Below, one piece after another: positions 3,274-64,000 of a stretch of 64,000 bases of DNA (positions are counted from its first letter, which is position 1; each line of letters opens with the position of its first letter). The DNA comes from Smithellaceae bacterium. GTDB lineage: Bacteria; Desulfobacterota; Syntrophia; Syntrophales; Smithellaceae. The notes below the pieces were generated by a model. That model had not been told where the DNA came from. It saw nothing but the letters and a program-made list of their open reading frames with translations, and did no database searches. Both the position numbers and the translations under genes were made by a program. Where the stretch lies: NCBI GenBank assembly GCA_963682105.1, contig OY821638.1, positions 570,801 through 634,800 on the forward strand, in the 5' to 3' direction.

Positions 3274-3660
3274 TCACGAACCCGGCGTTTTATTCTTTTC
3301 CGCCTGATACGCTTCCAGACCTGCTTCCAGGGCCTGTTTCAACCGGCCTGTTCCTTCAGCCAGTTTTCCGGCTCCGATTTTTGCAAGTTCACCGGCCTTC
3401 GCTTCAAGATCTTCAGCCTTCTGTATGGCGGCTCCTTCCGCGTCCTGAAGTTTTCGAACGGTCGCCTCGTATATGGCTTTGCTTTCTTCTCTGGCTTTAT
3501 CGTATTCCACTTTGGCTTTTGCCAGAAGGTCTTCGGTCTTTAAAGCGAGATCCTGACGGGTTTCTTTACCGCTTTTTGGTGCAAACAAAATTCCGACGGC
3601 CACGCCGATGATCCCACCGATCACCATGCCCCTTATTAAATCCCAATCACGTTCGGACAT
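3274..3660 (-). CDS. YtxH domain-containing protein
   Basis: Start taken at internal Met (MSERDWDLIRG...), which is preceded by GGAGG (reverse complement of 3667-3671). It has a Gly-rich TM helix (GGIIGVAVGILFAPKSGKETR) and then an Ala/Glu/Lys-rich helical region. Confidence 0.75.
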   Translation of the reverse strand: MSERDWDLIRGMVIGGIIGVAVGILFAPKSGKETRQDLALKTEDLLAKAKVEYDKAREESKAIYEATVRKLQDAEGAAIQKAEDLEAKAGELAKIGAGKLAEGTGRLKQALEAGLEAYQAEKNKTPGS

Positions 3661-7159: not shown

Positions 7160-8098
7160 TTAATCCACGCGCGCCTGCCCGCCCGGTTCAGGCTTTTGCA
7201 GCCAGGTCACGGCGACGATCGAAAGAAGAATCAGCAGTCCTCCTGAAGCGATGCGCAGGGTCAAATCTTCGCTGAAAATCAGCATCCCCAGCACAACGGC
7301 ATAAAGAATGCGGGACGTGGAAACCAGTCCGCCGGCCCGTGCTGAAATGTATTTGTAACCATATGTGATGCAGACCTGCCCCAGCACTCCCATGGCGGCC
7401 GACGCCCCGAGCAACAGCCATTGACCGCCTTCGGGCCAGACAAACACCGGCAGCATCGCCAGACCGTTGATCACCGTCCCGATCGACATTAAATAAAAAA
7501 GAATAACCGCCGTGGAATCGTTTTTACGCGCCATGTTCAGCGTGATGATGGCAAACGCCGCAACGATGCCGGACAACAATCCGAAAATATCTCCTTTGTT
7601 GATCGAACTCCACTGAGGATTAATCACCAGCCAGATGCCCAAAAGCGCACCGATCAGAACCAGGTACATCCGGAATGATATCTTCTCCGACCGGAAAAAA
7701 AGCGGCGAAAAGAGAAAAATGAAAAACGGATAGGTCATGTTGAGCATATGTGTGTTGGTAATCGTTGTATACTGAGAGGCCAGAAAAAAAAGAATGACGG
7801 CAATGGTATTGAGCACACCTCGCCAGATCAGCAGAGATACTTTATTCGGCACAAGGGATATGGAATTTTTATAAACCGTTATCGAGATCACGATCAGCCC
7901 CAGAAAAAAACGACCGAAGGTGACTTCCAGGGCCGATACGCCGGAGGTATTGGTCAACTGCTTGGAAAAAATAGTCGATATCGTAAAACAAAATTCCGAA
8001 AGGAGGATAAAAACAATGCCTCTGTATATGGGATTTACAATGGACATGGTCAAACTATAAGTAAAATCCGTCCGCTGTGTCAAGGACCTTATATACAA
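7160..8098 (-). CDS. DMT superfamily (EamA-like) transporter
   Basis: About 10 predicted TM helices arranged as two EamA-like halves. The start may instead be Met18 (8047). Confidence 0.72.
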   Translation of the reverse strand: MYIRSLTQRTDFTYSLTMSIVNPIYRGIVFILLSEFCFTISTIFSKQLTNTSGVSALEVTFGRFFLGLIVISITVYKNSISLVPNKVSLLIWRGVLNTIAVILFFLASQYTTITNTHMLNMTYPFFIFLFSPLFFRSEKISFRMYLVLIGALLGIWLVINPQWSSINKGDIFGLLSGIVAAFAIITLNMARKNDSTAVILFYLMSIGTVINGLAMLPVFVWPEGGQWLLLGASAAMGVLGQVCITYGYKYISARAGGLVSTSRILYAVVLGMLIFSEDLTLRIASGGLLILLSIVAVTWLQKPEPGGQARVD

Positions 8099-40431: not shown

Positions 40432-41508
40432 ATGTATGATGCCACAACAGAAAGACGCCGCAATTCCGATCACGATAAAAGCATGGATATTTCGCTTTAT
40501 AAAAGCATTATGGAAACGATTGATCTGGGCATTGTCATTCTCGGCATTAAAAGAAGAGACCTCATCTTCAAGAACCGGTTTGCTTCCGAAATTTTCCAGC
40601 ACAATCCGAATCTTCTGGAATACCGAAATCTTCTGTCCTTGCTGTTGACGGACTATGGCAGCAAGCCTGAAGAAGAAATTTTTGGGAAAAATTACACACT
40701 CCGCTTTAAAAATCGTCTTCTGGGCTACACGCCATACATGATTTCCGAAAGCTTCATCATGATTATCATCCGCGACATTACGGAAAGAAGTCGTCTGGAA
40801 TCCATCGCGGAAGCCGTAAATTCAATGGATAACATCGGTTATGTTTTCTCCGGCATCCGGCACGAACTGGGCAATCCCATCAATTCCATAAAAATGACGT
40901 TGAGCGTGCTTAAACGAAACTTAAGCGAATATTCTCCGGCCGCCGTTGAAAAATTTGTCGACCGCGCTATGACGGAAATTTCGCGTGTTGAATTCCTGCT
41001 TCAGGCGCTGAAAAGCTTCAGCATCTTCGAAAATCCGGAAATTCAAACCGTTCAGATCGATGATTTTCTGACGCGTTTCATCGCCCTGATCAGCAATGAC
41101 TTACAGCAGTCCGGGATAAAGATCGGTAAAACGGTTGAATCAAACGTCAAGACCGTCAGTGCTGATCCCCGCCTGCTGCATCAGGTGATGATGAATCTGA
41201 TCACCAACGCCTCAGACGCTCTTACCGGTAAGGAAAACAGAAAGATCAACATCCGGGCGCTCAAACACGACGGTTTAGTCGCCATCGTTGTTGATGACAA
41301 CGGATGTGGAATGTCCAAAGAGGCTCAGGCCAACCTGTTTAAACCTTTTTTCACAACAAAGAATCGGGGAACAGGCCTGGGATTGATGATCACCCTGAAG
41401 ATGGTGACGCTCATGAAGGGCAACATGGAAATTAAAAGCATCAAAGACAAGGGAACGCGAGTAGCCGTCATTTTGCCCCTGGGAGCCAGGCCCAATGCTA
41501 AAAGTTAA
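40432..41508 (+). CDS. Cytoplasmic sensor histidine kinase (PAS-like + HisKA + HATPase_c)
   Basis: H box FSGIRHELGNPIN, N box MMNLITNASDA, G1 DDNGCGM and G2 GTGLGL are present, with no TM helices. The start is uncertain (alternative Met at 40483). Confidence 0.82.
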   Translation: MYDATTERRRNSDHDKSMDISLYKSIMETIDLGIVILGIKRRDLIFKNRFASEIFQHNPNLLEYRNLLSLLLTDYGSKPEEEIFGKNYTLRFKNRLLGYTPYMISESFIMIIIRDITERSRLESIAEAVNSMDNIGYVFSGIRHELGNPINSIKMTLSVLKRNLSEYSPAAVEKFVDRAMTEISRVEFLLQALKSFSIFENPEIQTVQIDDFLTRFIALISNDLQQSGIKIGKTVESNVKTVSADPRLLHQVMMNLITNASDALTGKENRKINIRALKHDGLVAIVVDDNGCGMSKEAQANLFKPFFTTKNRGTGLGLMITLKMVTLMKGNMEIKSIKDKGTRVAVILPLGARPNAKS

Positions 41509-42844
41509 AAGAAAAATTCTGATTATCGACGACAATGACATTTTTTGCGAATCCGTCAAAGACCTGCTTACTGATCAAAACACGGACATCCTAACCGCCA
41601 ACACGGGTAAAGACGGCCTGCAACTGTGCACTGAAAACAAAATTGACGTTGTTATTCTGGACCAGAAGCTTCCCGACACACAGGGTGTGACGTTGTGTCC
41701 TTCCATCCTGAAACAAAACGAACAGACCAAAATCATTTTTGTCACCGCTTACCCGAGCTTCGCCAATGCCATAGACGCCATCAAAGTCGGGGCGCACGAT
41801 TATCTTTCCAAACCTTTCGAAATGGCGGAACTGGAATTGACCATCAAGCAGGCTTTCCGCACGCAGGAACTGGAAAAAACCGAGCAGATTCAGAATTACC
41901 AGAATATCCGGGAAAGCGAGGAGAATGATCTGATAGCCGGCGAAGGCGCATTTGATGAGATCAAACGCATGATTAATCTGGCGGCTGACAGCGATGCGCC
42001 TGTTCTCATTACCGGAGAAACCGGAACAGGCAAGAACGTTGTGGCGCGTGCCATTCACTATAAAAGCTCGCTTCCGGCCAGGCTTTTCCTGACAGCCAAT
42101 TGCGCCGCCTTTCCGGAAAACCTCATCGAGGCGGAATTGTTCGGATCGGAAAAGGGAGCCTTCACCGGCGCCAGCGCGACCCGCAAAGGCATATTCGAAC
42201 TGGCTGAGGGAGGAACGCTGTTACTCGATGAAATCGGCTCAATGCCCATTCATCTGCAGTCCAAGCTTTTAGGCGTCCTGGAAGAAAAAAAAATCCGGCG
42301 CATCGGCAGTGAAACCGTTAAACCCATCAATGTTCGTGTCATTGCCGCGGCCAATAACGACCTGGAAGAAGCCACTAAGGACAAAACATTTCGAAACGAT
42401 CTCTATTACCGCCTCAGCGTGATTCGCATTCATCTCCCGCCGTTGCGCGAAAGAAAAGAAGACATCCCCAAACTGTGCGAATATTTCATAGCAAAAATGT
42501 CCCGCGATGTGAATGTTCACCTCTCCGATGCGGAGGTGTCCCGGCTTATGGACTATGAGTGGCCCGGAAACGTCCGTGAATTGAAAAACGTCATTGAGCG
42601 TTCGCTGATCATTCAGCGAGGTCAACCTCTTCGACCTTCCCTGCTTTTGCGAACCGGCGTCACGCCTGCGGCAAACGCTTCCGCCGGACAGGACGATGAT
42701 GAAATCGTACCTCTTGAAGACACGGAAAAAAAATGCATCAGCCAGGCTCTGAAAAAATATAACGGCAACTACTCCCAATCCGCCAGGGCGCTGGGTATTT
42801 CCCTTTCCACACTCAAAAGAAAAGTAAAATCCTATCATCTTTAA
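41495..42844 (+). CDS. Sigma-54-dependent response regulator (NtrC family: REC + AAA+ + Fis-type HTH)
   Basis: 449 aa. REC domain (ILIIDDN, VVILDQKLPD), Walker A GETGTGKN, sigma-54 contact loop GAFTGA, Walker B LLLDEIG, and a C-terminal HTH SQSARALGISLSTLKRK. It overlaps the kinase gene by 14 nt. Confidence 0.92.
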   Translation: MLKVKRKILIIDDNDIFCESVKDLLTDQNTDILTANTGKDGLQLCTENKIDVVILDQKLPDTQGVTLCPSILKQNEQTKIIFVTAYPSFANAIDAIKVGAHDYLSKPFEMAELELTIKQAFRTQELEKTEQIQNYQNIRESEENDLIAGEGAFDEIKRMINLAADSDAPVLITGETGTGKNVVARAIHYKSSLPARLFLTANCAAFPENLIEAELFGSEKGAFTGASATRKGIFELAEGGTLLLDEIGSMPIHLQSKLLGVLEEKKIRRIGSETVKPINVRVIAAANNDLEEATKDKTFRNDLYYRLSVIRIHLPPLRERKEDIPKLCEYFIAKMSRDVNVHLSDAEVSRLMDYEWPGNVRELKNVIERSLIIQRGQPLRPSLLLRTGVTPAANASAGQDDDEIVPLEDTEKKCISQALKKYNGNYSQSARALGISLSTLKRKVKSYHL

Positions 42845-42978
42845 AAAGCTGTTGTGATACAAATCGCCTTTTCGATCAAAATGAATCATTCAGCTTGAAC
42901 GTAAACCAGGGAAATTGTTTCCAGATATCCAACACAAGTAATTGATATAACTCATTTACACAAAATACATTATTATTT

Positions 42979-42994
42979 GGGCACACCCTTTGCT
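42979..42994 (+). promoter_or_regulatory. Sigma-54 promoter (GGGCAC-N5-TTGCT)
   Basis: tGGGCACaccctTTGCTt has the GG and GC dinucleotides at canonical spacing. It lies 135 bp downstream of the NtrC-type gene and about 95 bp upstream of the REC gene ATG. Confidence 0.65.
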
Positions 42995-43089
42995 TGGTTG
43001 TCTTAGAATCGTCTATTCATTAAGACTTAAGCGATTTGGGGATTTCCTTAAAAAAGACTGAAGTTCTAAAAGAAGATAAGTTGAATGAG

Positions 43090-43542
43090 ATGGCACAGGA
43101 AAAAAACGATGTATTAACAACCGAAACCGTGAAAAGCCCGAAATACCATCGAAAAGATTCTGGTATTCTGGAAGTTTTAATTGTCGATGATGAAGAAACG
43201 CTTCTTTTAAGTATAGACGACGGTTTAAGCATTTATAAGCAATATTTCACACTCCTGACGGCCACAAACGGCGTTGATGCAGTGAATCTGCTGAAATCAA
43301 AAATGTCGATTGACCTGGTCATTACAGATCTTAAGATGCCCAGAATGGATGGTTTTGAACTTCTAACGTACATACAAAGAAACTTTCCCCATATTCCCGT
43401 TATTCTCATGACGGCTTACGGTACGCCTAAAATTGAGGAAATTGTCAAAACGATGGGGATTTACGGTTACCTGGAAAAACCACTGGACATCAATACGATT
43501 GCAGAAACTATTTTTGAGGCATTGAAGATAAAAATTCATTGA
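43090..43542 (+). CDS. Single-domain response regulator (receiver only)
   Basis: Start at MAQEKND; the track ORF starts at TTG 43036. The receiver has the acidic pocket VDDEE, phospho-acceptor VITDLKMP, plus MTAYG and EKP, and there is no output domain. Confidence 0.8.
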   Translation: MAQEKNDVLTTETVKSPKYHRKDSGILEVLIVDDEETLLLSIDDGLSIYKQYFTLLTATNGVDAVNLLKSKMSIDLVITDLKMPRMDGFELLTYIQRNFPHIPVILMTAYGTPKIEEIVKTMGIYGYLEKPLDINTIAETIFEALKIKIH

Positions 43543-43573
43543 TATCAGGCCCCAAAAATAAAAGGGATATTTC

Positions 43574-46174
43574 ATGGCGAAGATTGGTCATTTTAATAAA
43601 AACACTCAAAAAGAGGAACTTTCAGAAGCGCCTCAGGTCGAGGAACTCTTAAAGAATCTTGAGTTTCACAAAGCCATTCAGAGCATTACCAGCCGCATCA
43701 GCACCGCACCAACCCTTCGCGATATTTTAGTCGATATCAAAGAAGACATCCGCAATCTGTTCAATATCCACATCCTGACCATCTACCTGATTGATAAAAG
43801 CAGGAAGGAAATTTTTACAATCCGGAATGACGGCAGCGAAATCCGCTTCCCTGTCAACAATTCAACGCTGGCCGGTTATGTCACCCAAAAGAAACGGATG
43901 CTTCATATTGCCGATGCCTATAATGAACGGGAAATTCGAAAAATTCACGATCTTCTCGCCATAGACCGGACTCTGGATAAAAAGACGGGCATCCTGACGG
44001 GTCAGGTCATCGCCAGTCCCATCATGCGCGACAATCTTATCCTCGGCGTCATGGAAATTATGAACAAAAAGGGCGGCGATAACATCGATGATTATAATCA
44101 GATTTTTCTCGACGAAATTACAGGCGCTCTGGCCAAAGCCTTTTTCATGCACCTGAACTTGACCGAAGCCAAACAAATGTACGGCGCAAAATATGACTGG
44201 CTGATCAAGAACGGCGTGATCACCGCTGATCAGATGGACAACGTTATCAGAGAAATCAGCGAAAACGCAGAAGATATCTCATCTGTTCTTTTAGACAGTT
44301 ATCATGTCTCAAAAACCGACATCGGCAGGGCTCTGGCATCCTACTACTCCTGCCAGTTCGTACCATACAGCGACGACATGCCCATCCCACGCGACCTGCT
44401 GATCGGCATTGAGAAATACACGCTGATCAACATGCTGTGGGTCCCGATTAAAGTCGTCAAGGGAAAAATCCATGTGGCAATGGATGACCCTTCCGATCAG
44501 ATCCGGAAAAACAAAATAGAAGATATTCTGGAGACTAAATCCATTCAGTATGATGTGGCCATCGCCTCCGACATTTTGCGTTATATCAACCGTTTTTATT
44601 ATTCAGACGAAGAGGACGTCCCACCGCGTCAGAAATTTGAAATCCCGGCTCCGCAAAAACAGTTCACTTTGAGTCCTGTTTCTCTCAAACCCGATGAGAA
44701 CAAAGAAATCGTCTGCAGTGAAGAATTAACAGCTCCGCAACGATTAAAACCGGTTGTACTGGAGCCGTCAGGCGAGTTATCCGAGGAAGTTGCCACCCGG
44801 GGAATGAAAACAAGACAAGCCTCCTTATCATCAGGGGATGCGGTGAAACTTCTTGTTACACACACACATGAATTACCCAACCAACCCGAAAAACGAAAAT
44901 TTCCGGATATTGACTCTCTGTCTGAAATCAAAAACCATGCTCTGCCAAAACCATCCAATGTCGTCAGTCTGCCGGAAGGCCAGATGCCTCAGCCTCTGAC
45001 CAGCATCATTAACAATGCCTGCAGCCGTCGAGCCTCCGATATACACCTGGAACCGGATTCGGCCACGGGCCGGGTAACACTGCGCGTGCGAATCGACGGA
45101 CAGTTTTCAATTCTTCAGACGCTGTCTCCTTCTGAATACGAAACCTTGACCACGCAAGTAAAAACCCTGGCCAATCTCGACAACCAGAACACCTCTATCA
45201 TTCAAAACGGCCAACTGAGCCTGAAAAGACCTTCAGGAGATGAACTCCACATGAGGGTTTCTTTTATTCCAACCCGCTCCGGTATGGAAGACACGGTTAT
45301 CCATCTTTCAACCAGACTGAAAAAAATACCGCTGGAGCTTTTGGGTTTGTCGGAAAATAGTTATACGGACATGGTGAATATTCTGCGTCAGCCCAGAGGG
45401 TTGATCCTGATTACAGGCCCCGCTGATTCAGGTATAACCACAACGCTTCATGCGTGTCTTGATAACATCAACACACCTGAGATTAAAATCTGGACGGCGG
45501 AGGAACCGATAGAGATTGTACAGACCGGATTGCGGCAGGTTCAGATCGCCCCGCACAAAGGATTTGACTTTACAACGGTCCTGAATTCATTCCTGATGGC
45601 AGATCCGGACGTCATCATGGCCAGCCGGATCGATAACCAAACCACGGCCAAGCTCTGCATGAAGGCGGCCGTCAAAGGATGTCTCGTTCTGGGATCACTG
45701 TGGACGGAAAACATTCAGGATACCATCGACCGATGTCTGGACATGGAAACAGGCCATCTTTTATTTGCCGACGCCATGCTGGCTGTGGTTCAGCAAAGAC
45801 TGATCAAAACCCTCTGTCCGAAATGCAAGGAAAAATACCGTCCCAGCCCTGAAGAATATGAGGAGCTTGCTCAGATTTACGGGCAAGAAGATTTCGAAAA
45901 ACTCAACCTGCCCTATTCCAACGCCTTCAGTCTTTTCCGTCCCAAAGGTTGCCCTGATTGCGGACAGACGGGATATATGGGCAGGATGAGCGTTTCCGAA
46001 ACCCTGATTTTCACGTCTCAGATTAAACGAATGATCCGACGGAAAGAATCCTCCCTGCTGGTCTATCAGGCGGCGGTTACGTCGGGAATGACCACCCTGA
46101 TGCAGGACGGCATTAATAAAGTTATACAGGGATACAGCGACAGCAGGCATGTGAGACTGACTTGCCTGAGATAG
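43574..46174 (+). CDS. GAF + T2SSE_N + GspE/PilB-like protein with degenerate ATPase motifs (predicted pseudo-ATPase)
   Basis: 866 aa with the same architecture as the 29351-31651 product. The Walker A equivalent is GPADSGITT (45416-45442, Lys to Ile), Walker B is DPDVIMASRIDN (Glu lost) and the His box is KGCLVLGSLWTEN (both His lost). The tetracysteine CPKC...CPDC is retained, and the linker is about 130 aa of low-complexity sequence. Confidence 0.82.
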   Translation: MAKIGHFNKNTQKEELSEAPQVEELLKNLEFHKAIQSITSRISTAPTLRDILVDIKEDIRNLFNIHILTIYLIDKSRKEIFTIRNDGSEIRFPVNNSTLAGYVTQKKRMLHIADAYNEREIRKIHDLLAIDRTLDKKTGILTGQVIASPIMRDNLILGVMEIMNKKGGDNIDDYNQIFLDEITGALAKAFFMHLNLTEAKQMYGAKYDWLIKNGVITADQMDNVIREISENAEDISSVLLDSYHVSKTDIGRALASYYSCQFVPYSDDMPIPRDLLIGIEKYTLINMLWVPIKVVKGKIHVAMDDPSDQIRKNKIEDILETKSIQYDVAIASDILRYINRFYYSDEEDVPPRQKFEIPAPQKQFTLSPVSLKPDENKEIVCSEELTAPQRLKPVVLEPSGELSEEVATRGMKTRQASLSSGDAVKLLVTHTHELPNQPEKRKFPDIDSLSEIKNHALPKPSNVVSLPEGQMPQPLTSIINNACSRRASDIHLEPDSATGRVTLRVRIDGQFSILQTLSPSEYETLTTQVKTLANLDNQNTSIIQNGQLSLKRPSGDELHMRVSFIPTRSGMEDTVIHLSTRLKKIPLELLGLSENSYTDMVNILRQPRGLILITGPADSGITTTLHACLDNINTPEIKIWTAEEPIEIVQTGLRQVQIAPHKGFDFTTVLNSFLMADPDVIMASRIDNQTTAKLCMKAAVKGCLVLGSLWTENIQDTIDRCLDMETGHLLFADAMLAVVQQRLIKTLCPKCKEKYRPSPEEYEELAQIYGQEDFEKLNLPYSNAFSLFRPKGCPDCGQTGYMGRMSVSETLIFTSQIKRMIRRKESSLLVYQAAVTSGMTTLMQDGINKVIQGYSDSRHVRLTCLR

Positions 46175-56173: not shown

Positions 56174-56249
56174 TCCCCAGTAGCTCAGTCGGTAGAGCGG
56201 CTGGCTGTTAACCAGCATGTCCGTGGTTCGAGTCCGCGCTGGGGAGCCA
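56174..56249 (+). tRNA. tRNA-Asn (anticodon GTT), CCA encoded
   Basis: Manual cloverleaf: acceptor TCCCCAG/CTGGGGA, D arm GCTC-AGTCGGTA-GAGC, anticodon arm GCTGG-CTGTTAA-CCAGC, variable loop ATGTC, T arm CGTGG-TTCGAGT-CCGCG, discriminator G, then CCA. Confidence 0.93.
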
Positions 56250-56255
56250 GTACAA

Positions 56256-56288
56256 GAAGCCCGTTTGATTCAAACGGGCTTTCTTTTT
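56256..56288 (+). terminator. Rho-independent terminator after tRNA-Asn
   Basis: Stem GAAGCCCGTTTGA / TCAAACGGGCTTC followed by a TTTTT run. Confidence 0.78.
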
Positions 56289-56807
56289 GGTGCACCATGT
56301 CGCTTGGGGCATAGGTCCAATAACTTCTTCTTTCGATAAGAAATAAATTGTTATCATTGTCGTATAAGCAAGACTTTAATTCGTAATAGCAAATTAACAC
56401 CCGATTGAATACATCGGCACGGTTCTCTGTATTTTGCAGCCGTAATGCCTGCGCCCATGATGCCTTGACATTGGCGATTAGCGTCACCATACTATTAACA
56501 CGAAACGAGATACTGCGATGTTCGTATTGAGTCTGTTCTACTGGATGTTAACAACAAGAGAATCATAGGGTCTTTGTGGTGATGATCACCCTTAATAGAC
56601 CGGATATTAAATGATAGACTCCAGTAAAAGACAACACGGCATAGGCGGATCTCGTTTTTTTATATGATAAAACAGGCAACATTCGGCAGGGAGATTGGAG
56701 CAGCGTTGTAACGAACATCATTGTTATTACATGTTCACTTCCATAATGCCCCGCCTTTCAATTACTAATCATCATCTCAAAGCCGACGCCCCCCCCACAA
56801 AAATATC

Positions 56808-56823
56808 CCTCAATATATTGAGG
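56808..56823. promoter_or_regulatory. Perfect 16-bp palindrome CCTCAATATATTGAGG (copy A), candidate enhancer-binding-protein site
   Basis: It is the core of a ~50-bp repeat that recurs at 61231-61280. It lies exactly 133 bp upstream of the sigma-54 element at 56941. Confidence 0.5.
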
Positions 56824-56940
56824 CTCCGCCGGATATGGAGGCCAGACGAATCATTTTAGTTTTTGGCGCTGTTCTCATCCATCGATCCAACAGCTCGTTA
56901 TCATGCATTAATTCGAATTTTCTCCTTCACCGTCGGTTCT

Positions 56941-56956
56941 TGGCAGACTCCTTGCT
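56941..56956 (+). promoter_or_regulatory. Sigma-54 promoter (TGGCAG-N5-TTGCT)
   Basis: TGGCAGactccTTGCT has canonical GG/GC spacing. It lies about 90 bp upstream of the first gene of the KaiC-like operon. Confidence 0.62.
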
Positions 56957-57046
56957 ATTACACTTTCATGATCATTTTTTCATGCAGCAGACATTTGCGT
57001 CGGGGACACGCATGGTTTTAAGCTAACGTTAAACAGGGAGGGTTTT

Positions 57047-57247
57047 ATGAAATGGACCGGGTTCTATCTTATTGGTTATTTTGTCCTGATTAGCGGTCTT
57101 CTTGCCGCGCTCTGGAAGATGGGAGTTCTGTCCAGTATCGGCGCTGCATGGAGTGTAATCGGTGTTGTGATCGCGATCGGTATCGGCATCATGCTCGCCG
57201 TCTCCTCCAGCGGCAAAAAAGAAAATATTGAAATCAGCAGGAAGTGA
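57047..57247 (+). CDS. Small membrane protein, 66 aa, two TM helices
   Basis: GGGAGGG RBS 5 nt upstream. Hydrophobic sequence with a Lys/Glu-rich tail. Confidence 0.55.
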   Translation: MKWTGFYLIGYFVLISGLLAALWKMGVLSSIGAAWSVIGVVIAIGIGIMLAVSSSGKKENIEISRK

Positions 57248-57387
57248 AAGCTGCCGGAGATCTATCGCATAGTTACCTGAGAGCGAGTTTGCAAAATCGG
57301 GAATCCCGGCACAAAACCGGAATAACGTGAGTGCAAGGTGTTACGCCTGAATCATCTGAGTGCAATTTTAGAAAGGAGGCAATTGTC

Positions 57388-57522
57388 ATGCAAATCGCCA
57401 TATCACCACAACCGATCATTTCCCTCATCGCCGGCATACTGATTTTCATTTTCCCGAAATTATTGAATTACATTGTTGCCGTTTATCTCATCATTATCGG
57501 TATATTCGGATTGATCCGTTAA
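57388..57522 (+). CDS. DUF3096-like small membrane protein, 44 aa
   Basis: Internal ATG preceded by AAAGGAGG. The pattern LIAGILIFIFPKLLNYIVAVYLIIIGIFGL resembles DUF3096. Confidence 0.5.
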   Translation: MQIAISPQPIISLIAGILIFIFPKLLNYIVAVYLIIIGIFGLIR

Positions 57523-57537
57523 AAGGCATGACCCAGC

Positions 57538-58050
57538 ATGATGCCTCTGGGATATACAGATCGCCTCCCCAAAAGTACCAGAATCCGGCAACGATTTACA
57601 GGAGACGTTTTGATACCAACAACAGACAGCAACCTGCATCAGGAAGCAATACGAAGAACGCTGGCCCTTCGGGCCGGGGATGCCCCTGATGCGAACGCGG
57701 TTGCCGAAGCCACCTTGAGCACCTGGCGCCAGGTGGAAGTCCGGCTCACACCGGTGATCGGCGAGCGGGGTGTTGATGTTCTCCTGGACCGCACACTGCA
57801 CTTGACAAGCGCTGTTTTCCCCTGGCTGGCATTTACCGGCAATCAAGAGGACAGGACCGCTGCGCTTTCATATGTCAGGATATGCCTGGCAGGCAACCAG
57901 ACCAATATTGCCATAGAAGCAAGCTATACGCTTCTTACGAACTTCGTTAATCTTTTGGCGACCTTAATTGGAGAATCATTAACTGAGCGTTTGTTGAGTC
58001 CGGTCTGGGTGCCCCCGTTACCGGCATCTGAACAGGAGACGCCATCATGA
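57538..58050 (+). CDS. Hypothetical protein, no family recognised, upstream of and coupled to the KaiC-like gene
   Basis: 170-aa ORF whose stop overlaps the KaiC-like start (ATGA). An alternative TTG start at 57610 is preceded by GGAG. No family motif was recognised. Confidence 0.6.
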   Translation: MMPLGYTDRLPKSTRIRQRFTGDVLIPTTDSNLHQEAIRRTLALRAGDAPDANAVAEATLSTWRQVEVRLTPVIGERGVDVLLDRTLHLTSAVFPWLAFTGNQEDRTAALSYVRICLAGNQTNIAIEASYTLLTNFVNLLATLIGESLTERLLSPVWVPPLPASEQETPS

Positions 58051-59537
58051 ACAACAAAGTGACCATTCGTCGACTCGCCACCGGTGTACCTGGGCTGGAT
58101 GCCATCCTGGGTGGCGGTCTGCCGGAGTTCTCATTCAACATCATTGTGGGGCCTCCGGGTTCCGGCAAGACGACACTGGCACACCAAATCATGTTCGCCC
58201 TGGCAACTCGCGAAAATCCGGCGCTGTTTTTCACCGTGCTCGGCGAGCCGCCCTTGAAGATGCTGCGTTACCAGCAGCAGTTCTCGTTTTTCGAACCGGT
58301 CATGATCAATGAATCCATTCGCTTCATCGATTTACATCATGAGGTCTCGACGGGCAATTTCGGCCAGGTGCTGGCGCGCATCACACAGGATGTTAAGGCA
58401 TCCTCTCCCGGGCTGGTTTTTGTCGATTCATTCCGCTCGCTCATGCTGGAGGCGCGACACCATGCAAAAGGCGAGATCAGCCTGCAACAGTTTATTTCGC
58501 AACTCGGGATACTTCTCGGCGGCTGGCAGGCCACCACCTTCCTGATCGGGGAATATTTGTCGGAGAGCGAACCCCATCCGGTCTTTACGGTGGCCGACGG
58601 CTTGCTGTCTCTGGAGCAAAGCGTCTACCGCAATTCGATGGTGCGCAGGCTGCAGGTTCTGAAAATGCGTGGACAGGCGACCCGCCCGGGGATGCATACA
58701 TTCCGCATCACCGGTGACGGGATCGAAGTCTTTCCGGCGGCTATTATTCGTGACGATGCCGGAGCAAGGCAGGAGGCCTCCGGATCGCTCACCGGCAAAA
58801 CAAGGCTCGCCATGGGCGTGCCGGGACTGGACGATATGCTGGGCGGCGGCTTGCCTTCGGGTTATTCACTCCTGGTCGCAGGGCCGTCCGGATCGGGCAA
58901 GACCATTCTTGCCACGGCCTTTCTGGCCGAAGGTGTACGCCGTGGCGAGCCGGGCGTCATCGTTGCGTTTGAGCAAACGCCAAGTCAGTCGCGGACCCGT
59001 ACACTCGACCACATGGTCCGTGCAGGACAAATCGGATTAATCAATACCCGCTCGCTGGATCTTTCGATCGATGAGATCGTTTCGCATTTAATTGCCCTCA
59101 TTCATCAGATGAAAGCCACCCGGGTGGTCATCGATTCACTTTCCGGATTCGAACTGGCGGTGGCGCCGAGCTTTCGCGAGGACTTTCGCGAGTCTCTGTT
59201 CCGGATGGTCGCCGTGCTGTCCAACATCGGTGTCACGGTGCTGATGACGTCGGAACTTGAAGACCGCTATACCGATTTGCGGTTCAGTCCTTACGGATCC
59301 GCATTTCTCACCGACGCGATCATCGTCCAGCGTTACATCGAGATCGGAAGCCGCCTGAAGCGCGTTCTGGCAATCGTCAAAGTGCGGGGCAGCACCCACA
59401 GCAATGAGCTCCGACAGTTTGAAATCACCGATGAAGGCATCATCATTGGCAAGCCGGTGCTTGATTATGATGGGCTCCTGGGCGGACGGCCGACGCGGGC
59501 GCCTGCATCTGATATCTTCCAGCAAGGTAACCCGTAA
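58047..59537 (+). CDS. KaiC-like double RecA-domain ATPase
   Basis: 496 aa with two tandem domains, each containing GVPGLDxxLGGGLP plus a Walker A (GPPGSGKTT; GPSGSGKTI) and a Walker B (LVFVDSF; RVVIDSL). The C-terminal KVRGSTHSNELRQFEITDEGI matches the KaiC/RadA-like pattern. Confidence 0.88.
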   Translation: MNNKVTIRRLATGVPGLDAILGGGLPEFSFNIIVGPPGSGKTTLAHQIMFALATRENPALFFTVLGEPPLKMLRYQQQFSFFEPVMINESIRFIDLHHEVSTGNFGQVLARITQDVKASSPGLVFVDSFRSLMLEARHHAKGEISLQQFISQLGILLGGWQATTFLIGEYLSESEPHPVFTVADGLLSLEQSVYRNSMVRRLQVLKMRGQATRPGMHTFRITGDGIEVFPAAIIRDDAGARQEASGSLTGKTRLAMGVPGLDDMLGGGLPSGYSLLVAGPSGSGKTILATAFLAEGVRRGEPGVIVAFEQTPSQSRTRTLDHMVRAGQIGLINTRSLDLSIDEIVSHLIALIHQMKATRVVIDSLSGFELAVAPSFREDFRESLFRMVAVLSNIGVTVLMTSELEDRYTDLRFSPYGSAFLTDAIIVQRYIEIGSRLKRVLAIVKVRGSTHSNELRQFEITDEGIIIGKPVLDYDGLLGGRPTRAPASDIFQQGNP

Positions 59538-61204
59538 TGAAAAAGAAGAAAGAAACTCCGGGGAAAGCCATGAACGGGCGGTCACTTGAGGGAAACGAAA
59601 ATACTCTGTTTCCCGCCTCTGCGTCCAGTTCCTTCATCGCCTCACGTGAGTCGACCGTCCTTATTCGTGAAGAGTCTGACAGCTTGCGCAGGGATATTGC
59701 GGACCTGCGGAAAGAAGCGGCAAACCTTCGCCGGGAAACCGCCGACCTGCGGAAGAAATTACTTCACACCAGGAGAAAGACTGCCGGGGCCAAAGCCGAG
59801 CTGGGCGCGCGCACCGAGGCATTGTTGCGTGAAGCGAATGAGCAGCTTGTCGTTGCGGCTATTCACGCCCAGACGATGAACGAGACCGCACAGCAGACCG
59901 CCCTTCAGATGACCCACATGGCCAAACACGACTTTCTTACAGGTTTACCAAACCGTATGCTGCTCAACGACCGCCTGGAGCGGTCCATTGCGCTGGCTAA
60001 ACGTCAGGGCAAGAAGGTCGCACTGATGTATATGGACGTCGATCACTTCAAGCACATCAATGATTCGCTCGGGCATATGATCGGCGACCAGCTTTTACAG
60101 TGCATTGCCAAGCGCCTGTATGCCTGCGTTCGCCTCTCGGATACCGTCAGCCGCCTGGGGGGCGACGAATTCGTGGTGCTTCTGGCCGATGTTGAGGATG
60201 CGCATGGCGCCGCTCTCACCGCTCAAAAGCTGATCGAAGCCATGGCCGAACCCCATCTCATCGGCATCCACAGGCTCCACGTCACCCTCAGTATCGGCAT
60301 CAGCCTCTACCCGGACAACGGCAAGGACATTGAATCGGTGATTCGCAACGCCGACACCGCGATGTATCATGCCAAGAAAAAAGGACGAAACAACTACCAG
60401 GTATTCACACCGGACATGAAAGTCCGCGCGGTGAAAAGGCAATTCGTTAAGCAGGCGCTGCACCGCGCACTCGAACAAAATAAATTTGTATTGCATTACC
60501 AGCCAAAGGTAAATCTCGCAACCGGCGCGATTACCGGCGCCGAAGCGCTGCTGCGCTGGCAGCGATCCAATCAGCGGATCGCCTACCCGGCGCAGTTTTT
60601 GAGCGTCGCCGAAGAGAGCGGCCTCATTGGGCCGATTGGCCAGTGGGCGCTCGGCGAAGCCTGCCGTCAGGCGCAAGTCTGGCTGCAATCCGGCCTTGAT
60701 TTCGGTCAGATGGCCGTCAACATCTCGGCGATGGAGTTCCAGGGAAAGGATTTTTTTGCCGGCGTGCAGAACATCCTCAAGAACACCGGTCTGGATCCCC
60801 ATCACCTCACCTTAGAGCTGACCGAAACGGGAATGATGCAGGACACACAACAAACGATGGATATCTTGCAAACACTGAAAGATCTTGGCGTAAAGATTGC
60901 CATCGATGACTTCGGCACTGGCTATTCCAGCCTGAGCTATTTGCGCAGTTTCCCGATCGACGAACTCAAGATTGACCAGTCTTTCGTGCAGGCTATCGAC
61001 AGTGATGAAGGCGATGCCATCGTCAGCGCCGTCATTGCAATCGGCAAGAGCCTCAAGCAGCAAGTCGTGGCCGAGGGCATCGAAACAAATAAACAGCTTG
61101 CCTTCCTCCAATCCCGGCATTGTGCTGAGGGACAAGGTTATTACTTCGGCTGCCCCGTACCTGCCGAAGGATTCACCGCATTGCTGGCAGGCGTCAGGCA
61201 TTAA
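59537..61204 (+). CDS. Coiled-coil + GGDEF + EAL domain protein (c-di-GMP turnover)
   Basis: 555 aa. The N-terminus is Arg/Leu-rich coiled coil with repeated DLRKEAANLRRETADLRKK. An intact GGDEF motif (RLGGDEFVV) with an upstream RxxD-like region is present, along with EAL motifs (EALLRW, DDFGTGYSSLSYL, KIDQSF, EGIE). The ATG overlaps the KaiC-like stop by 1 nt. Confidence 0.88.
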   Translation: MKKKKETPGKAMNGRSLEGNENTLFPASASSSFIASRESTVLIREESDSLRRDIADLRKEAANLRRETADLRKKLLHTRRKTAGAKAELGARTEALLREANEQLVVAAIHAQTMNETAQQTALQMTHMAKHDFLTGLPNRMLLNDRLERSIALAKRQGKKVALMYMDVDHFKHINDSLGHMIGDQLLQCIAKRLYACVRLSDTVSRLGGDEFVVLLADVEDAHGAALTAQKLIEAMAEPHLIGIHRLHVTLSIGISLYPDNGKDIESVIRNADTAMYHAKKKGRNNYQVFTPDMKVRAVKRQFVKQALHRALEQNKFVLHYQPKVNLATGAITGAEALLRWQRSNQRIAYPAQFLSVAEESGLIGPIGQWALGEACRQAQVWLQSGLDFGQMAVNISAMEFQGKDFFAGVQNILKNTGLDPHHLTLELTETGMMQDTQQTMDILQTLKDLGVKIAIDDFGTGYSSLSYLRSFPIDELKIDQSFVQAIDSDEGDAIVSAVIAIGKSLKQQVVAEGIETNKQLAFLQSRHCAEGQGYYFGCPVPAEGFTALLAGVRH

Positions 61205-61232
61205 CCGCGCGATCGTTTCCCGCGAACGTGTC

Positions 61233-61248
61233 CCTCAATATATTGAGG
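61233..61248. promoter_or_regulatory. Perfect 16-bp palindrome CCTCAATATATTGAGG (copy B)
   Basis: Identical palindrome to copy A, again exactly 133 bp upstream of a sigma-54 element (61366). Confidence 0.5.
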
Positions 61249-61365
61249 CCCCGCTAAATATGGAGGTCAAATCAATGATTGCACGCTGCTTTATGACTCT
61301 CTGCCCCTCAACCTAAGATTATGTATTTAATACATTATTGTAACTATTTATTATTTTTTACTTGT

Positions 61366-61381
61366 TGGCAGGCCCTTTGCA
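61366..61381 (+). promoter_or_regulatory. Sigma-54 promoter (TGGCAG-N5-TTGCA)
   Basis: TGGCAGgccctTTGCA is a near-perfect match to the -24/-12 consensus. Confidence 0.65.
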
Positions 61382-61505
61382 GCAATGATTTCAGAAACGA
61401 CCATGAGTGAGGATAACCAAGAAATACTTTTCTTAAAACCCAACCCGGCTCAAAACACACTCATCCAGCATGGAGATGAACATATTAATAAGGAGGAAAC
61501 ATTGC

Positions 61506-61847
61506 ATGAATATTATAAAACATTTATTTTTTCAGAGTCTGGTCCTGACATTTCTATTATCGGGATTTAATGTTTTTGCCGCCGACCAATCCATTTGCCA
61601 TTCCGGAGCAAAAATCCTGCTTTATAACAACGGGTCCCTGCAAACGTGCCAACTCAAAGATGATTACGATACAAACAGCATCCAGTGTAAAGGAAATGCT
61701 CAAATTAATTATTATAACAACGGCAATCTGGAATCTTGTGTGCTCGCCAGATCGGCCAGCATCGGTATGATTAAATGCCGGGGAAATGGGATCATTACTT
61801 TCTTCATAGACGGCAATTTGAAATCATGCACGAAACCGGACAACTAA
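61506..61847 (+). CDS. Secreted Cys-containing repeat protein (three NGxLxxC repeats)
   Basis: Start at MNIIKHLFF, preceded by AAGGAGG. It has a signal peptide (FNVFA/ADQ) and three repeats of roughly 30 aa: LLYNNGSLQTCQL, INYYNNGNLESCVL and ITFFIDGNLKSCT. These are loosely like MORN-variant/YwqK repeats. Confidence 0.6.
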   Translation: MNIIKHLFFQSLVLTFLLSGFNVFAADQSICHSGAKILLYNNGSLQTCQLKDDYDTNSIQCKGNAQINYYNNGNLESCVLARSASIGMIKCRGNGIITFFIDGNLKSCTKPDN

Positions 61848-61869
61848 GAATAGCAGAAAGGAGATATTT

Positions 61870-62208
61870 ATGATGACAGAGCAGGAAAAACACATGGATC
61901 ATTTATTCGTCGGATTACTAATCGGCGGCGCTTTAGGCGCATTGGCAGGCATTCTCTTCGCACCAAAACCGGGAAAACAATTGAGGTCTGAAATCAAAGA
62001 GAAGGGAAACTCGATTTTGAAGGATGCCATGGATATTTATGACGAGGCCAACATGAAAGCAAAAGAGATCATTGAAGAAGCAAGGCATCAAGCGGCGGAG
62101 TTGAAAAAGGACGCCAATCGACATCTCTCGGAGACGAGCCTGAAAACCAAAGCAATCTTGGCCCGGCATGAAAATAAGCAGACGGAGGCCGGCGCCGAGG
62201 AACATTGA
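61870..62208 (+). CDS. YtxH domain-containing protein
   Basis: 112 aa with the TM helix LLIGGALGALAGILFAPKPGKQLR followed by a charged helical region. AAAGGAG RBS upstream. Confidence 0.72.
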   Translation: MMTEQEKHMDHLFVGLLIGGALGALAGILFAPKPGKQLRSEIKEKGNSILKDAMDIYDEANMKAKEIIEEARHQAAELKKDANRHLSETSLKTKAILARHENKQTEAGAEEH

Positions 62209-62224
62209 ACCATCGGGGGAAAAA

Positions 62225-64000
62225 ATGCGCGGCTGGAATTATTCACCCGCCGACAGTAACGCTATTGGCCTTGCGCGTAACTGCCGGCGGGATTTCCTGA
62301 ATGCTTTGCGGAAATACCGGCGTATCCGCAAAGTTCCGGGCCGTTTGCACTGGTTGCGCGGCGTTGTTTACGTTCTTGCGTGTACATCGGTTGTTACGCT
62401 TACGCTGGTTGCCATCGGATTACATCACATCTATCTGGACCGAACCAACCTGCCTGTCATAGAATCATTGACGCGTTTTGAGTTTCCCACCATAGGACAC
62501 GTTTACGACGCCGATGGTCAGCCGCTTCTGGAGCTGGCCAGAGAATACCGGTTGAACATCAAATATCAGGACATCCCACCGATTGTCCGTGATGCGATTC
62601 TTGCCGCAGAAGACAAGAACTTCTTCACGCACAGCGGCATTGATTATTCCGTCATTCCTCGCGTCCTTAGCAAAATCAGGATGGGGACTCTGACGGCAAG
62701 ACTTATAACATTCGGTAAGAAAGATGAGCTGAAAAGCGAACCGATTTTCCCGCATGGAGGATCAACCATTACGCAGCAACTCGTACGCGGTCATTTTCTT
62801 AAAGACCTGACCGCCTTCGAAAACATGACCACTCAGGAAAACAGAGATCAGCTCAGCCAGGGAATGTTTCCGGTCCGCGCACTGTCTTATATAATCAGCT
62901 CCAGGAGCATCAACATGATGGTTCGGAAGCTGGAGGAAATTCGTCTGTCTTTATGGGTCGAAAACGAGATGCAGGCGCATTTCGGATCGAAACGCCGCGC
63001 CAAAGAAGAAATTTTAGCCCGATACGCCAGTTTAATTTATATGGGAAACGGTCAATATGGCTTTGAAGCGGCGGCGCAATATTATTTCGGCCGGCCGCTT
63101 GCCACCTTCACCACCGATGATGCTGACAAGGCGGCGCTACTGGCCTCCATCGCCAAGTCACCCCACAACTACGCGCCCGGGGCAAAAAATACCGGTAGAA
63201 TCCTGCAACGGAGAAATCAAAGTCTTGCGCTCATGGCAGCCAATGGTTTTATTTCTCCAGACAGGTTGCAGGAAGCAAGACAGCGCCCGATTGATCCTCC
63301 CGTACGGCACAAGAACAAAACGTTCCCGGGGCCGGCGGTCGTTGGAAATACTCTGGATGAACTCAAAGGCTTTGCCGCCGGATTCGGCATTGAGGATCTT
63401 CGAAATGGGCGCATCCAGGTCTACACAACGGTGGACTCACGTGTACAGCAAATTGTGGATGCTGCACTGGAGTACGGTCTTGCACGTTACGAAAAGCGTC
63501 ACCCGGCTGCCAGGGGGCTCATCCAGGGCTCCGTCGTTGTGCTGAAGAACCGCGATGCGAGGATCCTTGCCGAAACGGGCGGCCGTCAATTTTACCAGGA
63601 CCGTTCGAACTCTTACAATGACTTTAACCGCGTCACAAAGTCTTTGCGGCAACCGGGGTCCGCCATGAAACCGATTGTTTATCTCGCTGCTTTTCAGCAG
63701 GGAATATTTCATCTGGATTCGCTGATTCCCGACGATCCCATCAGCGTGCTCGACGGCGGAAACATGAAAGAAAAATGGATATCAAACTACGATGGTCAAT
63801 TCAAAGGCCTGATTCCGCTTCGGGAGGCGCTTGCGGAATCCAGAAACGCGGCCACCATTTGGATTACCCGGCAGATTGGTATTGAAAGCGTTATCTGGAC
63901 AGCGCAGGGTTTGGGAATACAAACGCCGCTTAAGCCCTACGTCACAACCGCTCTGGGAGCGTCCGAAGTGAATCTCCTGGAACTGGCCAATGCCTACCGC
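62225..64000 (+). CDS. Class A penicillin-binding protein (PBP1A-type transglycosylase/transpeptidase), 3' end outside the window
   Basis: Not in the ORF track because it runs off the window. Manual translation from ATG 62225 stays open to 64000 (592 codons). GT51 motifs AEDKNFFTHSGID, GGSTITQQL and RKLEE are present, along with the transpeptidase SxxK motif (GSAMKP). Confidence 0.88.
   Translation, partial: MRGWNYSPADSNAIGLARNCRRDFLNALRKYRRIRKVPGRLHWLRGVVYVLACTSVVTLTLVAIGLHHIYLDRTNLPVIESLTRFEFPTIGHVYDADGQPLLELAREYRLNIKYQDIPPIVRDAILAAEDKNFFTHSGIDYSVIPRVLSKIRMGTLTARLITFGKKDELKSEPIFPHGGSTITQQLVRGHFLKDLTAFENMTTQENRDQLSQGMFPVRALSYIISSRSINMMVRKLEEIRLSLWVENEMQAHFGSKRRAKEEILARYASLIYMGNGQYGFEAAAQYYFGRPLATFTTDDADKAALLASIAKSPHNYAPGAKNTGRILQRRNQSLALMAANGFISPDRLQEARQRPIDPPVRHKNKTFPGPAVVGNTLDELKGFAAGFGIEDLRNGRIQVYTTVDSRVQQIVDAALEYGLARYEKRHPAARGLIQGSVVVLKNRDARILAETGGRQFYQDRSNSYNDFNRVTKSLRQPGSAMKPIVYLAAFQQGIFHLDSLIPDDPISVLDGGNMKEKWISNYDGQFKGLIPLREALAESRNAATIWITRQIGIESVIWTAQGLGIQTPLKPYVTTALGASEVNLLELANAYR

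Follow-up and report, generated by a model that had tools for sequence, protein, structure and literature searches.

Why does the window, a stretch of 64,000 nucleotides from a Smithellaceae bacterium, hold the same perfect 16-bp palindrome twice, each time at an identical distance from a sigma-54 promoter? The palindrome, CCTCAATATATTGAGG, occupies 56808–56823 and 61233–61248 and, being symmetric, is assigned to neither strand; these are its only two matches in the window, with no third even when up to three mismatches are allowed. The 64 kb contain just two TGGCA-N6-TTGC elements, at 56941 and 61366, and from the first base of the palindrome to this sigma-54 core there are 133 nt at both copies. 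A sequence-only reading of this DNA had pointed out the two exact palindromes and the 133 bp to TGGCAG, both of which our scans reproduce, and had proposed an enhancer for a common bEBP. That proposal is supported by the fixed spacing, the dyad symmetry, a second site in tandem, conservation and linkage to an activator gene. We hold it highly probable that the palindromes (predicted activator site A, copies 1 and 2) are enhancer sites of co-regulated sigma-54 promoters that answer to one bEBP.

A repeated 16-mer is by itself unremarkable, as about 0.5 pairs of identical 16-mers are expected in 64 kb. For the palindrome in particular, shuffled controls gave a mean of 0.26 matches, with two or more in 3 of 100 shuffles. 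Chance is excluded because several features are combined: a perfect palindrome, similarity that extends beyond it, the same offset to the only two cores and conservation elsewhere. The surrounding repeat had been estimated at about 50 bp and about 80% identity; it is real (62 nt, 77% identity, gap-free between copies 1 and 2), but the true unit is a whole promoter module of about 165 nt. Part by part, the two copies agree at 16 of 16 positions in site A, 13 of 16 in site B, 12 of 16 in the promoter and 37 of 99 in the spacer. The spacers are indeed dissimilar when compared pairwise, as had been noticed, but each of them aligns to the family consensus.

To delimit the modules, we used an nhmmer profile of 166 positions that was derived from 38 modules in other genomes, the window copies being left out. 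On the plus strand, copy 1 has its envelope at 56796–56963 (aligned 56800–56961, E = 2e-32) and copy 2 at 61221–61388 (aligned 61224–61385, E = 2.8e-25); across the window, the profile returned nothing beyond these two. Each module consists of activator sites, a spacer and a −24/−12 element, in the order 16-bp palindrome, 2 nt, an imperfect second 16-mer, spacer and promoter. The second 16-mer, predicted activator site B, reads CCGCCGGATATGGAGG in copy 1 (56826–56841, plus strand) and CCGCTAAATATGGAGG in copy 2 (61251–61266, plus strand). It begins 18 nt after the start of site A, and its family consensus, CCACCAAATATTGAGG, matches site A at 13 of 16 positions. As read from the sequence, the half-sites CCTCA and TGAGG have their centres 11 bp apart, a distance that would suit a dimeric Fis-type HTH. 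The predicted sigma-54 promoters are TGGCAGACTCCTTGCT for operon 1 (56941–56956, plus strand) and TGGCAGGCCCTTTGCA for operon 2 (61366–61381, plus strand), and in both of them GG and GC are exactly 10 nt apart, as in the sigma-54 consensus TGGCAC-N5-TTGCW. Transcription starts, predicted at the usual 12 nt past the C of the −12 GC, fall near 56967 and 61392, with the start codons 80 nt (operon 1) and 114 nt (operon 2) further on. Relative to these starts, sites A and B are centred near −151 and −133; their centre-to-centre distance of 18 bp is a non-integral number of helical turns, a point against the enhancer reading. At both copies a dyad-symmetric site is found in the range expected of a bEBP enhancer, about 80–200 bp upstream of −24/−12.

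The spacer could also house a bending protein. Many modules match the IHF consensus WATCARNNNNTTR (at most one mismatch) at two fixed positions, 53 and 26 nt ahead of TGGCA, and a bending protein is plausible for the module family. The same consensus had no match within either window copy, and an IHF site as a required part is unsupported for both.

To what extent is this arrangement a family trait? A scan of one genome per species, seeded with the exact 16-mer, gave at least 120 loci, and 43 of the 120 listed have a match to the module profile. Among the matches listed, module loci belong nearly all to MAGs labelled Deltaproteobacteria, Thermodesulfobacteriota, Syntrophaceae, Smithella, Syntrophus or Syntrophorhabdus. 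The distance from palindrome start to TGGCA, taken over 47 modules, is 130 nt in 1, 131 in 6, 132 in 14, 133 in 23, 134 in 2 and 135 in 1, and a −24/−12 match stands at the same place in 51 of the 53 modules among the matches listed. A strict sigma-54 core lies at 125–140 nt for 35 of the 44 exact palindromes in the 43 module loci, against 0 of 79 palindromes in the other 77 loci, mostly from unrelated genomes (both counts among the matches listed). The nine palindromes of module loci that lack such a core include contig-end truncations, variant cores and copies of the activator site only; examples of the nine are L076 at 7453, L107 and L114. Several loci carry 2–4 modules within 8 kb (four in L097, three in L060), and the MAG DeMMO6_17 has at least five. 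The sequence-only reading had named a dispersed repeat found without sigma-54 promoters as one observation that would defeat it. The palindrome is dispersed, yet the objection does not apply, because in module-bearing genomes a promoter almost always accompanies it.

Written out at length, the family pattern is ...CCTCAATATATTGAGG-TT-CCACCAAATATTGAGG-CCAAACGAATCATTTC...TCTCTCC..TTAATCTAAC...TGTTATTAAAGGATGA...TGGCAGGCCATTTGCA. Copies found by the profile also show the site A variants CCTCAATATGCTGAGG, CCTCAGGATATTGAGG and CATCAACATATTGATG, which reduce to CCTCA-N6-TGAGG; the window's site A equals the family consensus, even in copies not chosen by their palindrome. In a sample seeded with the activator and not selected on DNA, 42 distinct activator-site 34-mers gave the consensus CCTCAATATATTGAGGTTCCACCAAATATTGAGG, with conservation of at least 80–90% at most positions and a minimum of about 50%.

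Two loci depart from this arrangement. In Desulfococcaceae bacterium HSG9 (L085), CCTCAATATATTGAGG occurs three times, at 3296, 7532 and 7667, in a different architecture: a sigma-54 core is 91 nt off, an imperfect site lies on the opposite side, secreted-protein genes follow downstream, and no bEBP is found within the 8-kb block. In L114, the activator-site part of the module stands alone at 7231–7277, and what comes after it looks, by eye, like a TPP riboswitch (CTGAGA...ACCCTTTGAACCTGA).

Related loci also suggest which protein might bind. Upstream of the palindrome and on the same strand, they carry the gene of a PAS-PAS-Sigma54_activat-HTH_8 (AAA+) protein of about 650 aa, whose stop codon precedes the palindrome by 27–62 nt in at least eight genomes (L016, L056, L067, L090, L097, L102, L103, L110). 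Its HTH includes ...GAAAILGLHPSTLRARMHKLGI... and, as a second excerpt of the signature, ...LGLHPSTLRARMHKLGI..., and its C-terminus, ...RWRIEGKDGAAAILGLHPSTLRARMHKLGI.RPETKEPD, is nearly invariant. For an independent sample of the linkage, the C-terminal 134 residues of this PAS-bEBP served as the query against metagenome contigs; the best 80 of 538 relatives were taken, and the count was limited to the 61 loci with at least 200 nt past the activator stop. A module starts no more than 150 nt past that stop in 57 of these 61; of the remaining four, two have a module at 170–230 nt and two are without one. In 38 of the 57, the palindrome begins 25 nt past the stop. Such adjacency is strong genetic linkage of an invariant HTH to an invariant site, as is typical where a bEBP is encoded beside its enhancer, and binding itself is predicted from it. 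On these grounds, the PAS-bEBP family is likely to be the activator of the modules.

No such protein is encoded nearby. A tblastn search of the window with the PAS-bEBP HTH gave no match, and no RpoN box was found in the window; the ortholog must lie outside the window because none is present within it. The earlier remark that no cognate activator is encoded beside either site holds: the only bEBP of the window (41495–42844) has a different HTH.

The best-surviving alternative, which we nonetheless consider very unlikely, is that the palindrome binds some other factor (a repressor, an anti-activator or a nucleoid protein), with the true bEBP site elsewhere or absent. The further conserved blocks of the spacer, TCTCTCC, TTAATCTAAC and TGTTATTAAAGGATGA, could be protein sites and lend it some support. 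However, sigma-54 promoters require a bEBP, and within the module only −24/−12 rivals the tandem 16-mers in conservation. The 16-mers are also spaced from the promoter as enhancers usually are and adjoin a bEBP gene with a nearly invariant HTH, and the module contains no second conserved dyad-symmetric element. Alternatively, the module could be the mere promoter of the operon that follows the PAS-bEBP gene and be served by another bEBP; the adjacency of the genes would then stand for linkage rather than binding.

Still less probable, and in our estimate quite improbable, is activation of both promoters by the window's own bEBP. This protein, of the response-regulator type, is encoded at 41495–42844 beside a histidine kinase (40432–41508), and in its favor it is the sole bEBP in the window (Sigma54_activat, 1e-64, with an HTH_8) and lies 14 kb from site 1. 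Its HTH, NYSQSARALGISLSTLKRKV, nevertheless differs from the module-associated one, its gene adjoins no module, its neighbors (a receiver protein and a T2SSE/MshEN ATPase) suggest a pilus or secretion role, and modules are linked to the PAS-type bEBP in the 57 of 61 loci counted above from the best 80 of 538 relatives. HTH and gene context speak against it as the activator. The cluster at 40432–46174, which comprises the histidine kinase, the response-regulator-type bEBP, a single receiver protein and a T2SSE ATPase of 866 aa with MshEN, probably forms a sigma-54 circuit of its own that serves a pilus or secretion system.

We return to the PAS-bEBP and its modules, whose family history can be read from what the copies carry along. 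Secondary copies have no intact activator or ABM gene attached, and they align to the canonical bEBP–ABM junction past the edges of the module. Their relics amount to 15–180 nt of the 3′ end of the activator gene and 15–150 nt of the 5′ end of the ABM gene, and were found in L003, L021/L045, L022, L028, L055, L082, L094, L099 and L097. The second copy in L003, for example, has a 32-residue ABM stump ahead of CsbD, and L055 retains only the final ~150 nt of the bEBP gene. In window copy 1, nothing but ATGATCATT is left, at the position of the ABM start (56968–56976). These alignments point to growth of the regulon by segmental duplication of the whole promoter junction, and not by transposition, because the secondary copies bear relics of both genes.

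That the palindrome is a REP- or MITE-like dispersed element or a terminator hairpin, with no enhancer role, is barely credible: several module copies do occur per genome (L097, L060, DeMMO6_17), and the palindrome can form a 6-bp hairpin with a weak terminator-like site on the minus strand (56823–56808), but the core sits at 125–140 nt in 35 of 44 exact palindromes with few promoterless partial copies (among the matches listed), the module is directional with no obvious terminal inverted repeats, the relics of bEBP and ABM genes speak for segmental duplication rather than transposition, no plus-strand T-run follows the hairpin, whose 6-bp stem has an AT-rich centre, site 2 is listed as a terminator on neither strand, and Rfam gives no match (covariance models over 56400–61700, E up to 1). 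Both the MITE and the terminator readings were rejected on anatomy, promoter linkage and gene relics.

Behind copy 1 lies operon 1 (57047–61204, plus strand), whose five genes were delimited from ORFs, Pfam and NCBIfam. All on the plus strand, they encode a 66-aa membrane protein (57047–57247), a DUF3096 protein (ORF 57331–57522, probable start 57388), a 170-aa protein without family (57538–58050), a KaiC-like double-domain ATPase (58047–59537) and a GGDEF-EAL protein (59537–61204). Module copy 2 begins 17 nt past the GGDEF-EAL stop codon and is followed by operon 2 (61506–64000, plus strand; Pfam), which encodes a secreted 113-aa repeat protein (61506–61847), YtxH (61870–62208) and PBP1A, all on the plus strand as well. 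The ATG of the last, at 62225, is 16 nt past the YtxH stop and has a Shine-Dalgarno sequence upstream; the gene continues past the window end, and no terminator was found between YtxH and PBP1A. The 113-aa secreted repeat protein is also found behind modules in L008, L030 and L060. NCBIfam has no name for the 66-aa, 170-aa and 113-aa proteins, nor for the ABM and Zn-ribbon proteins of the related loci.

The window from 56.4 to 62.2 kb is syntenic with L060, a contig of an uncultured Smithella sp., at 77–80% nucleotide identity, which places the window in a Smithella-like member of the Syntrophales. After YtxH, L060 has a third module and an ABM gene (7232–7389), and at the corresponding place (~62210) the window has PBP1A directly. 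Upstream of copy 1 there is a tRNA-Asn (GTT) at 56174–56249, followed by a strong hairpin with a T-run (56256–56282). A 101-aa ORF on the minus strand (56185–56490) is probably spurious, because it overlaps the tRNA-Asn and the hairpin and has no family match. Between these and the module lies a candidate small RNA (56465–56666, plus strand), with a sigma-70-like promoter, TTGACA-17-CATACT (10/12; 56465–56493), and, after it, a rod-like fold of about 168 nt (−47.3 kcal/mol, z = −3.1), which is closed by a long stem and ends in a T-run. This region is 83–84% conserved with L060 and L114, and Rfam gave no meaningful match over 56440–56720.

The reading of one enhancer common to two operons is supported, but the regulon appears far wider than these two. 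The module of the canonical locus stands ahead of genes for an ABM-domain protein of 101 aa and a Zn-ribbon protein of 65 aa; next comes either an RpoH-family sigma factor (NF005143; 300 bits, cut-off 241) or a series of small proteins. The RpoH-family sigma (316 aa) is the third gene past the module in L162, with partial copies in L036 and L044, and its presence in a module operon suggests a cascade from sigma-54 to sigma-32. Elsewhere, modules precede genes for CsbD, YtxH, a triple-BON (OsmY-like) protein, Usp and Band_7, for the membrane proteins DUF3309, DUF5670, DUF3096 and DUF3185-like, and for trehalose-type alpha-amylase and DUF932; the window adds the KaiC-like/GGDEF-EAL operon and PBP1A. 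CsbD, YtxH, BON, Usp, small membrane proteins and the like are the repertoire of general stress regulons. The families found behind modules correspond to those of a general stress regulon by functional analogy, and by that analogy it is more probable than not that the modules serve a stress response.

The canonical ABM gene (e.g., in L090, L036, L056 and L162) has a peculiar start. In 42 of 49 loci, the A of its ATG stands 14 nt past the C of the −12 GC, i.e., at about +3 from the predicted transcription start, with no room for a ribosome-binding site. Since the position of the ATG leaves no such room, this implies an ABM mRNA that would be leaderless and sigma-54-dependent. Gene callers often predict a longer product, of 121 aa.

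The neighborhood of the activator gene raises a further possibility. In L201 (5957–9813), kaiC, kaiB and kaiB are immediately upstream of the PAS-bEBP gene and on the same strand. Of the 26 metagenome loci that extend far enough upstream, 14 have kaiB, mostly with kaiC, directly ahead of that gene and on its strand. Kai genes occupy the same place in L125, L130, L138, L157, L158, L160, L170 and L174, as well as in L177–L179, L186, L189, L200, L016, L047, L056 and L110. The KaiC-like protein of the window (58047–59537) is 29% identical to the activator-adjacent KaiC, a distant paralog. Control of the PAS-bEBP by KaiBC is speculation on our part, and rather doubtful.

How would the module work? 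We hypothesize that the palindrome and the imperfect 16-mer 2 nt downstream constitute the upstream activating sequence of the sigma-54 promoter, and that dimers of one bEBP would bind the two adjacent 16-bp sites and assemble into an active AAA+ ring. By looping of the ~100-bp spacer, the ring would reach the closed complex of RNA polymerase and sigma-54 at −24/−12 and drive open-complex formation, which presumes that the promoters depend on RpoN. With one bEBP at both promoters, the two operons would be induced jointly. As activator, the ortholog of the PAS-PAS-AAA+-HTH_8 protein, encoded outside the window, is the most likely candidate, and the window copies would be diverged members of a module family that wires general-stress-like genes to a PAS-bEBP.

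A broader picture can be drawn, and we offer it tentatively. Syntrophic Thermodesulfobacteriota (Smithella, Syntrophaceae and relatives) may run general stress through sigma-54 instead of a stress sigma factor of the sigma-70 family. A PAS-bEBP, often encoded beside kaiC-kaiB-kaiB, whose products possibly gate it, would activate near-identical cassettes spread by segmental duplication of the bEBP–ABM intergenic region. Its targets would comprise CsbD, YtxH, BON, Usp, small membrane proteins, an RpoH-family sigma, the leaderless ABM and the two operons of the window.

If confirmed, the system would equip a large and so far uncharacterised sigma-54 regulon with a definite activator, a site of 34 bp and a promoter model that genomes can be searched with. 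The carriers are key to methanogenic degradation and mostly uncultured, so that their regulons must be read from sequence. Confirmation would also provide a common regulatory context for DUF3096, DUF3309, DUF5670, YtxH and CsbD, tie c-di-GMP signalling and a class A penicillin-binding protein to the module response, and make the frequent kaiC-kaiB-kaiB neighborhood a route, open to testing, by which KaiBC systems of other bacteria than cyanobacteria could act. The copies that bear relics clearly illustrate how a regulon grows through the copying of whole promoter cassettes.

As for precedents, a full-text literature search with the 16-mer CCTCAATATATTGAGG gave no match, and the literature found for sigma-54 together with CsbD, regulome or KaiBC contains no description of the module regulon. 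The available portions of the Desulfovibrio sigma-54 regulome paper (PMC4641369) describe no CsbD or YtxH regulon and no comparable motif. We regard the system as new because the 16-mer and such a regulon are absent from the literature searched.

In design, the module resembles NtrC at glnAp2 and NorR at norVW, where tandem dyad sites for a dimeric Fis-type HTH also lie more than 100 bp upstream of TGGCA-N6-TTGC. In NtrC and NorR enhancers, the AAA+ ring is believed to nucleate on several neighboring sites. In contrast to both, the site is CCTCA-N6-TGAGG, its two instances are only 18 bp apart centre to centre, the linked activator has PAS sensor domains instead of a receiver (NtrC) or GAF (NorR), and the whole is a stereotyped 165-nt unit repeated across many promoters and genomes. 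FhlA is the closest named relative of the PAS-bEBP, whose linker, AAA+ and HTH align to positions 315–688 of the 692 of the FhlA model. The protein is not FhlA, because it scores 391.6 bits and thus falls well short of the 830 that the family requires; its N-terminus is moreover PAS-PAS rather than GAF, and its targets are unrelated to formate metabolism.

In gene content, the module targets overlap with the regulons of sigma-B (Bacillus), sigma-S (E. coli) and EcfG/PhyR (Alphaproteobacteria). CsbD, YtxH, BON/OsmY-like proteins, Usp, DUF3309/5670/3096, trehalose-type amylase and Band_7 belong to sigma-B, sigma-S or EcfG regulons. The wiring is different, as the modules appear to use sigma-54 and an enhancer-binding ATPase, not an alternative factor of the sigma-70 family, and an RpoH-family sigma is itself a module target in some genomes. 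There is also a likeness to non-photosynthetic KaiBC systems: about half of the sampled loci have kaiB(C) directly ahead of the activator gene, and a KaiC-like protein is among the targets in the window. A preprint on Pseudomonas KaiC-like proteins ties such proteins to stress resistance in non-photosynthetic bacteria and describes the partners of non-cyanobacterial KaiC-like proteins as largely unknown (bioRxiv 10.1101/2022.01.26.477890); a sigma-54 activator as a neighbor of KaiC or KaiB was not found in the literature searched. Taken together, these comparisons suggest that the module system would be a classical bEBP enhancer with its sigma-54 promoter in architecture and, by its site, sensor, uniformity and targets, a new and uncharacterised member of that class.
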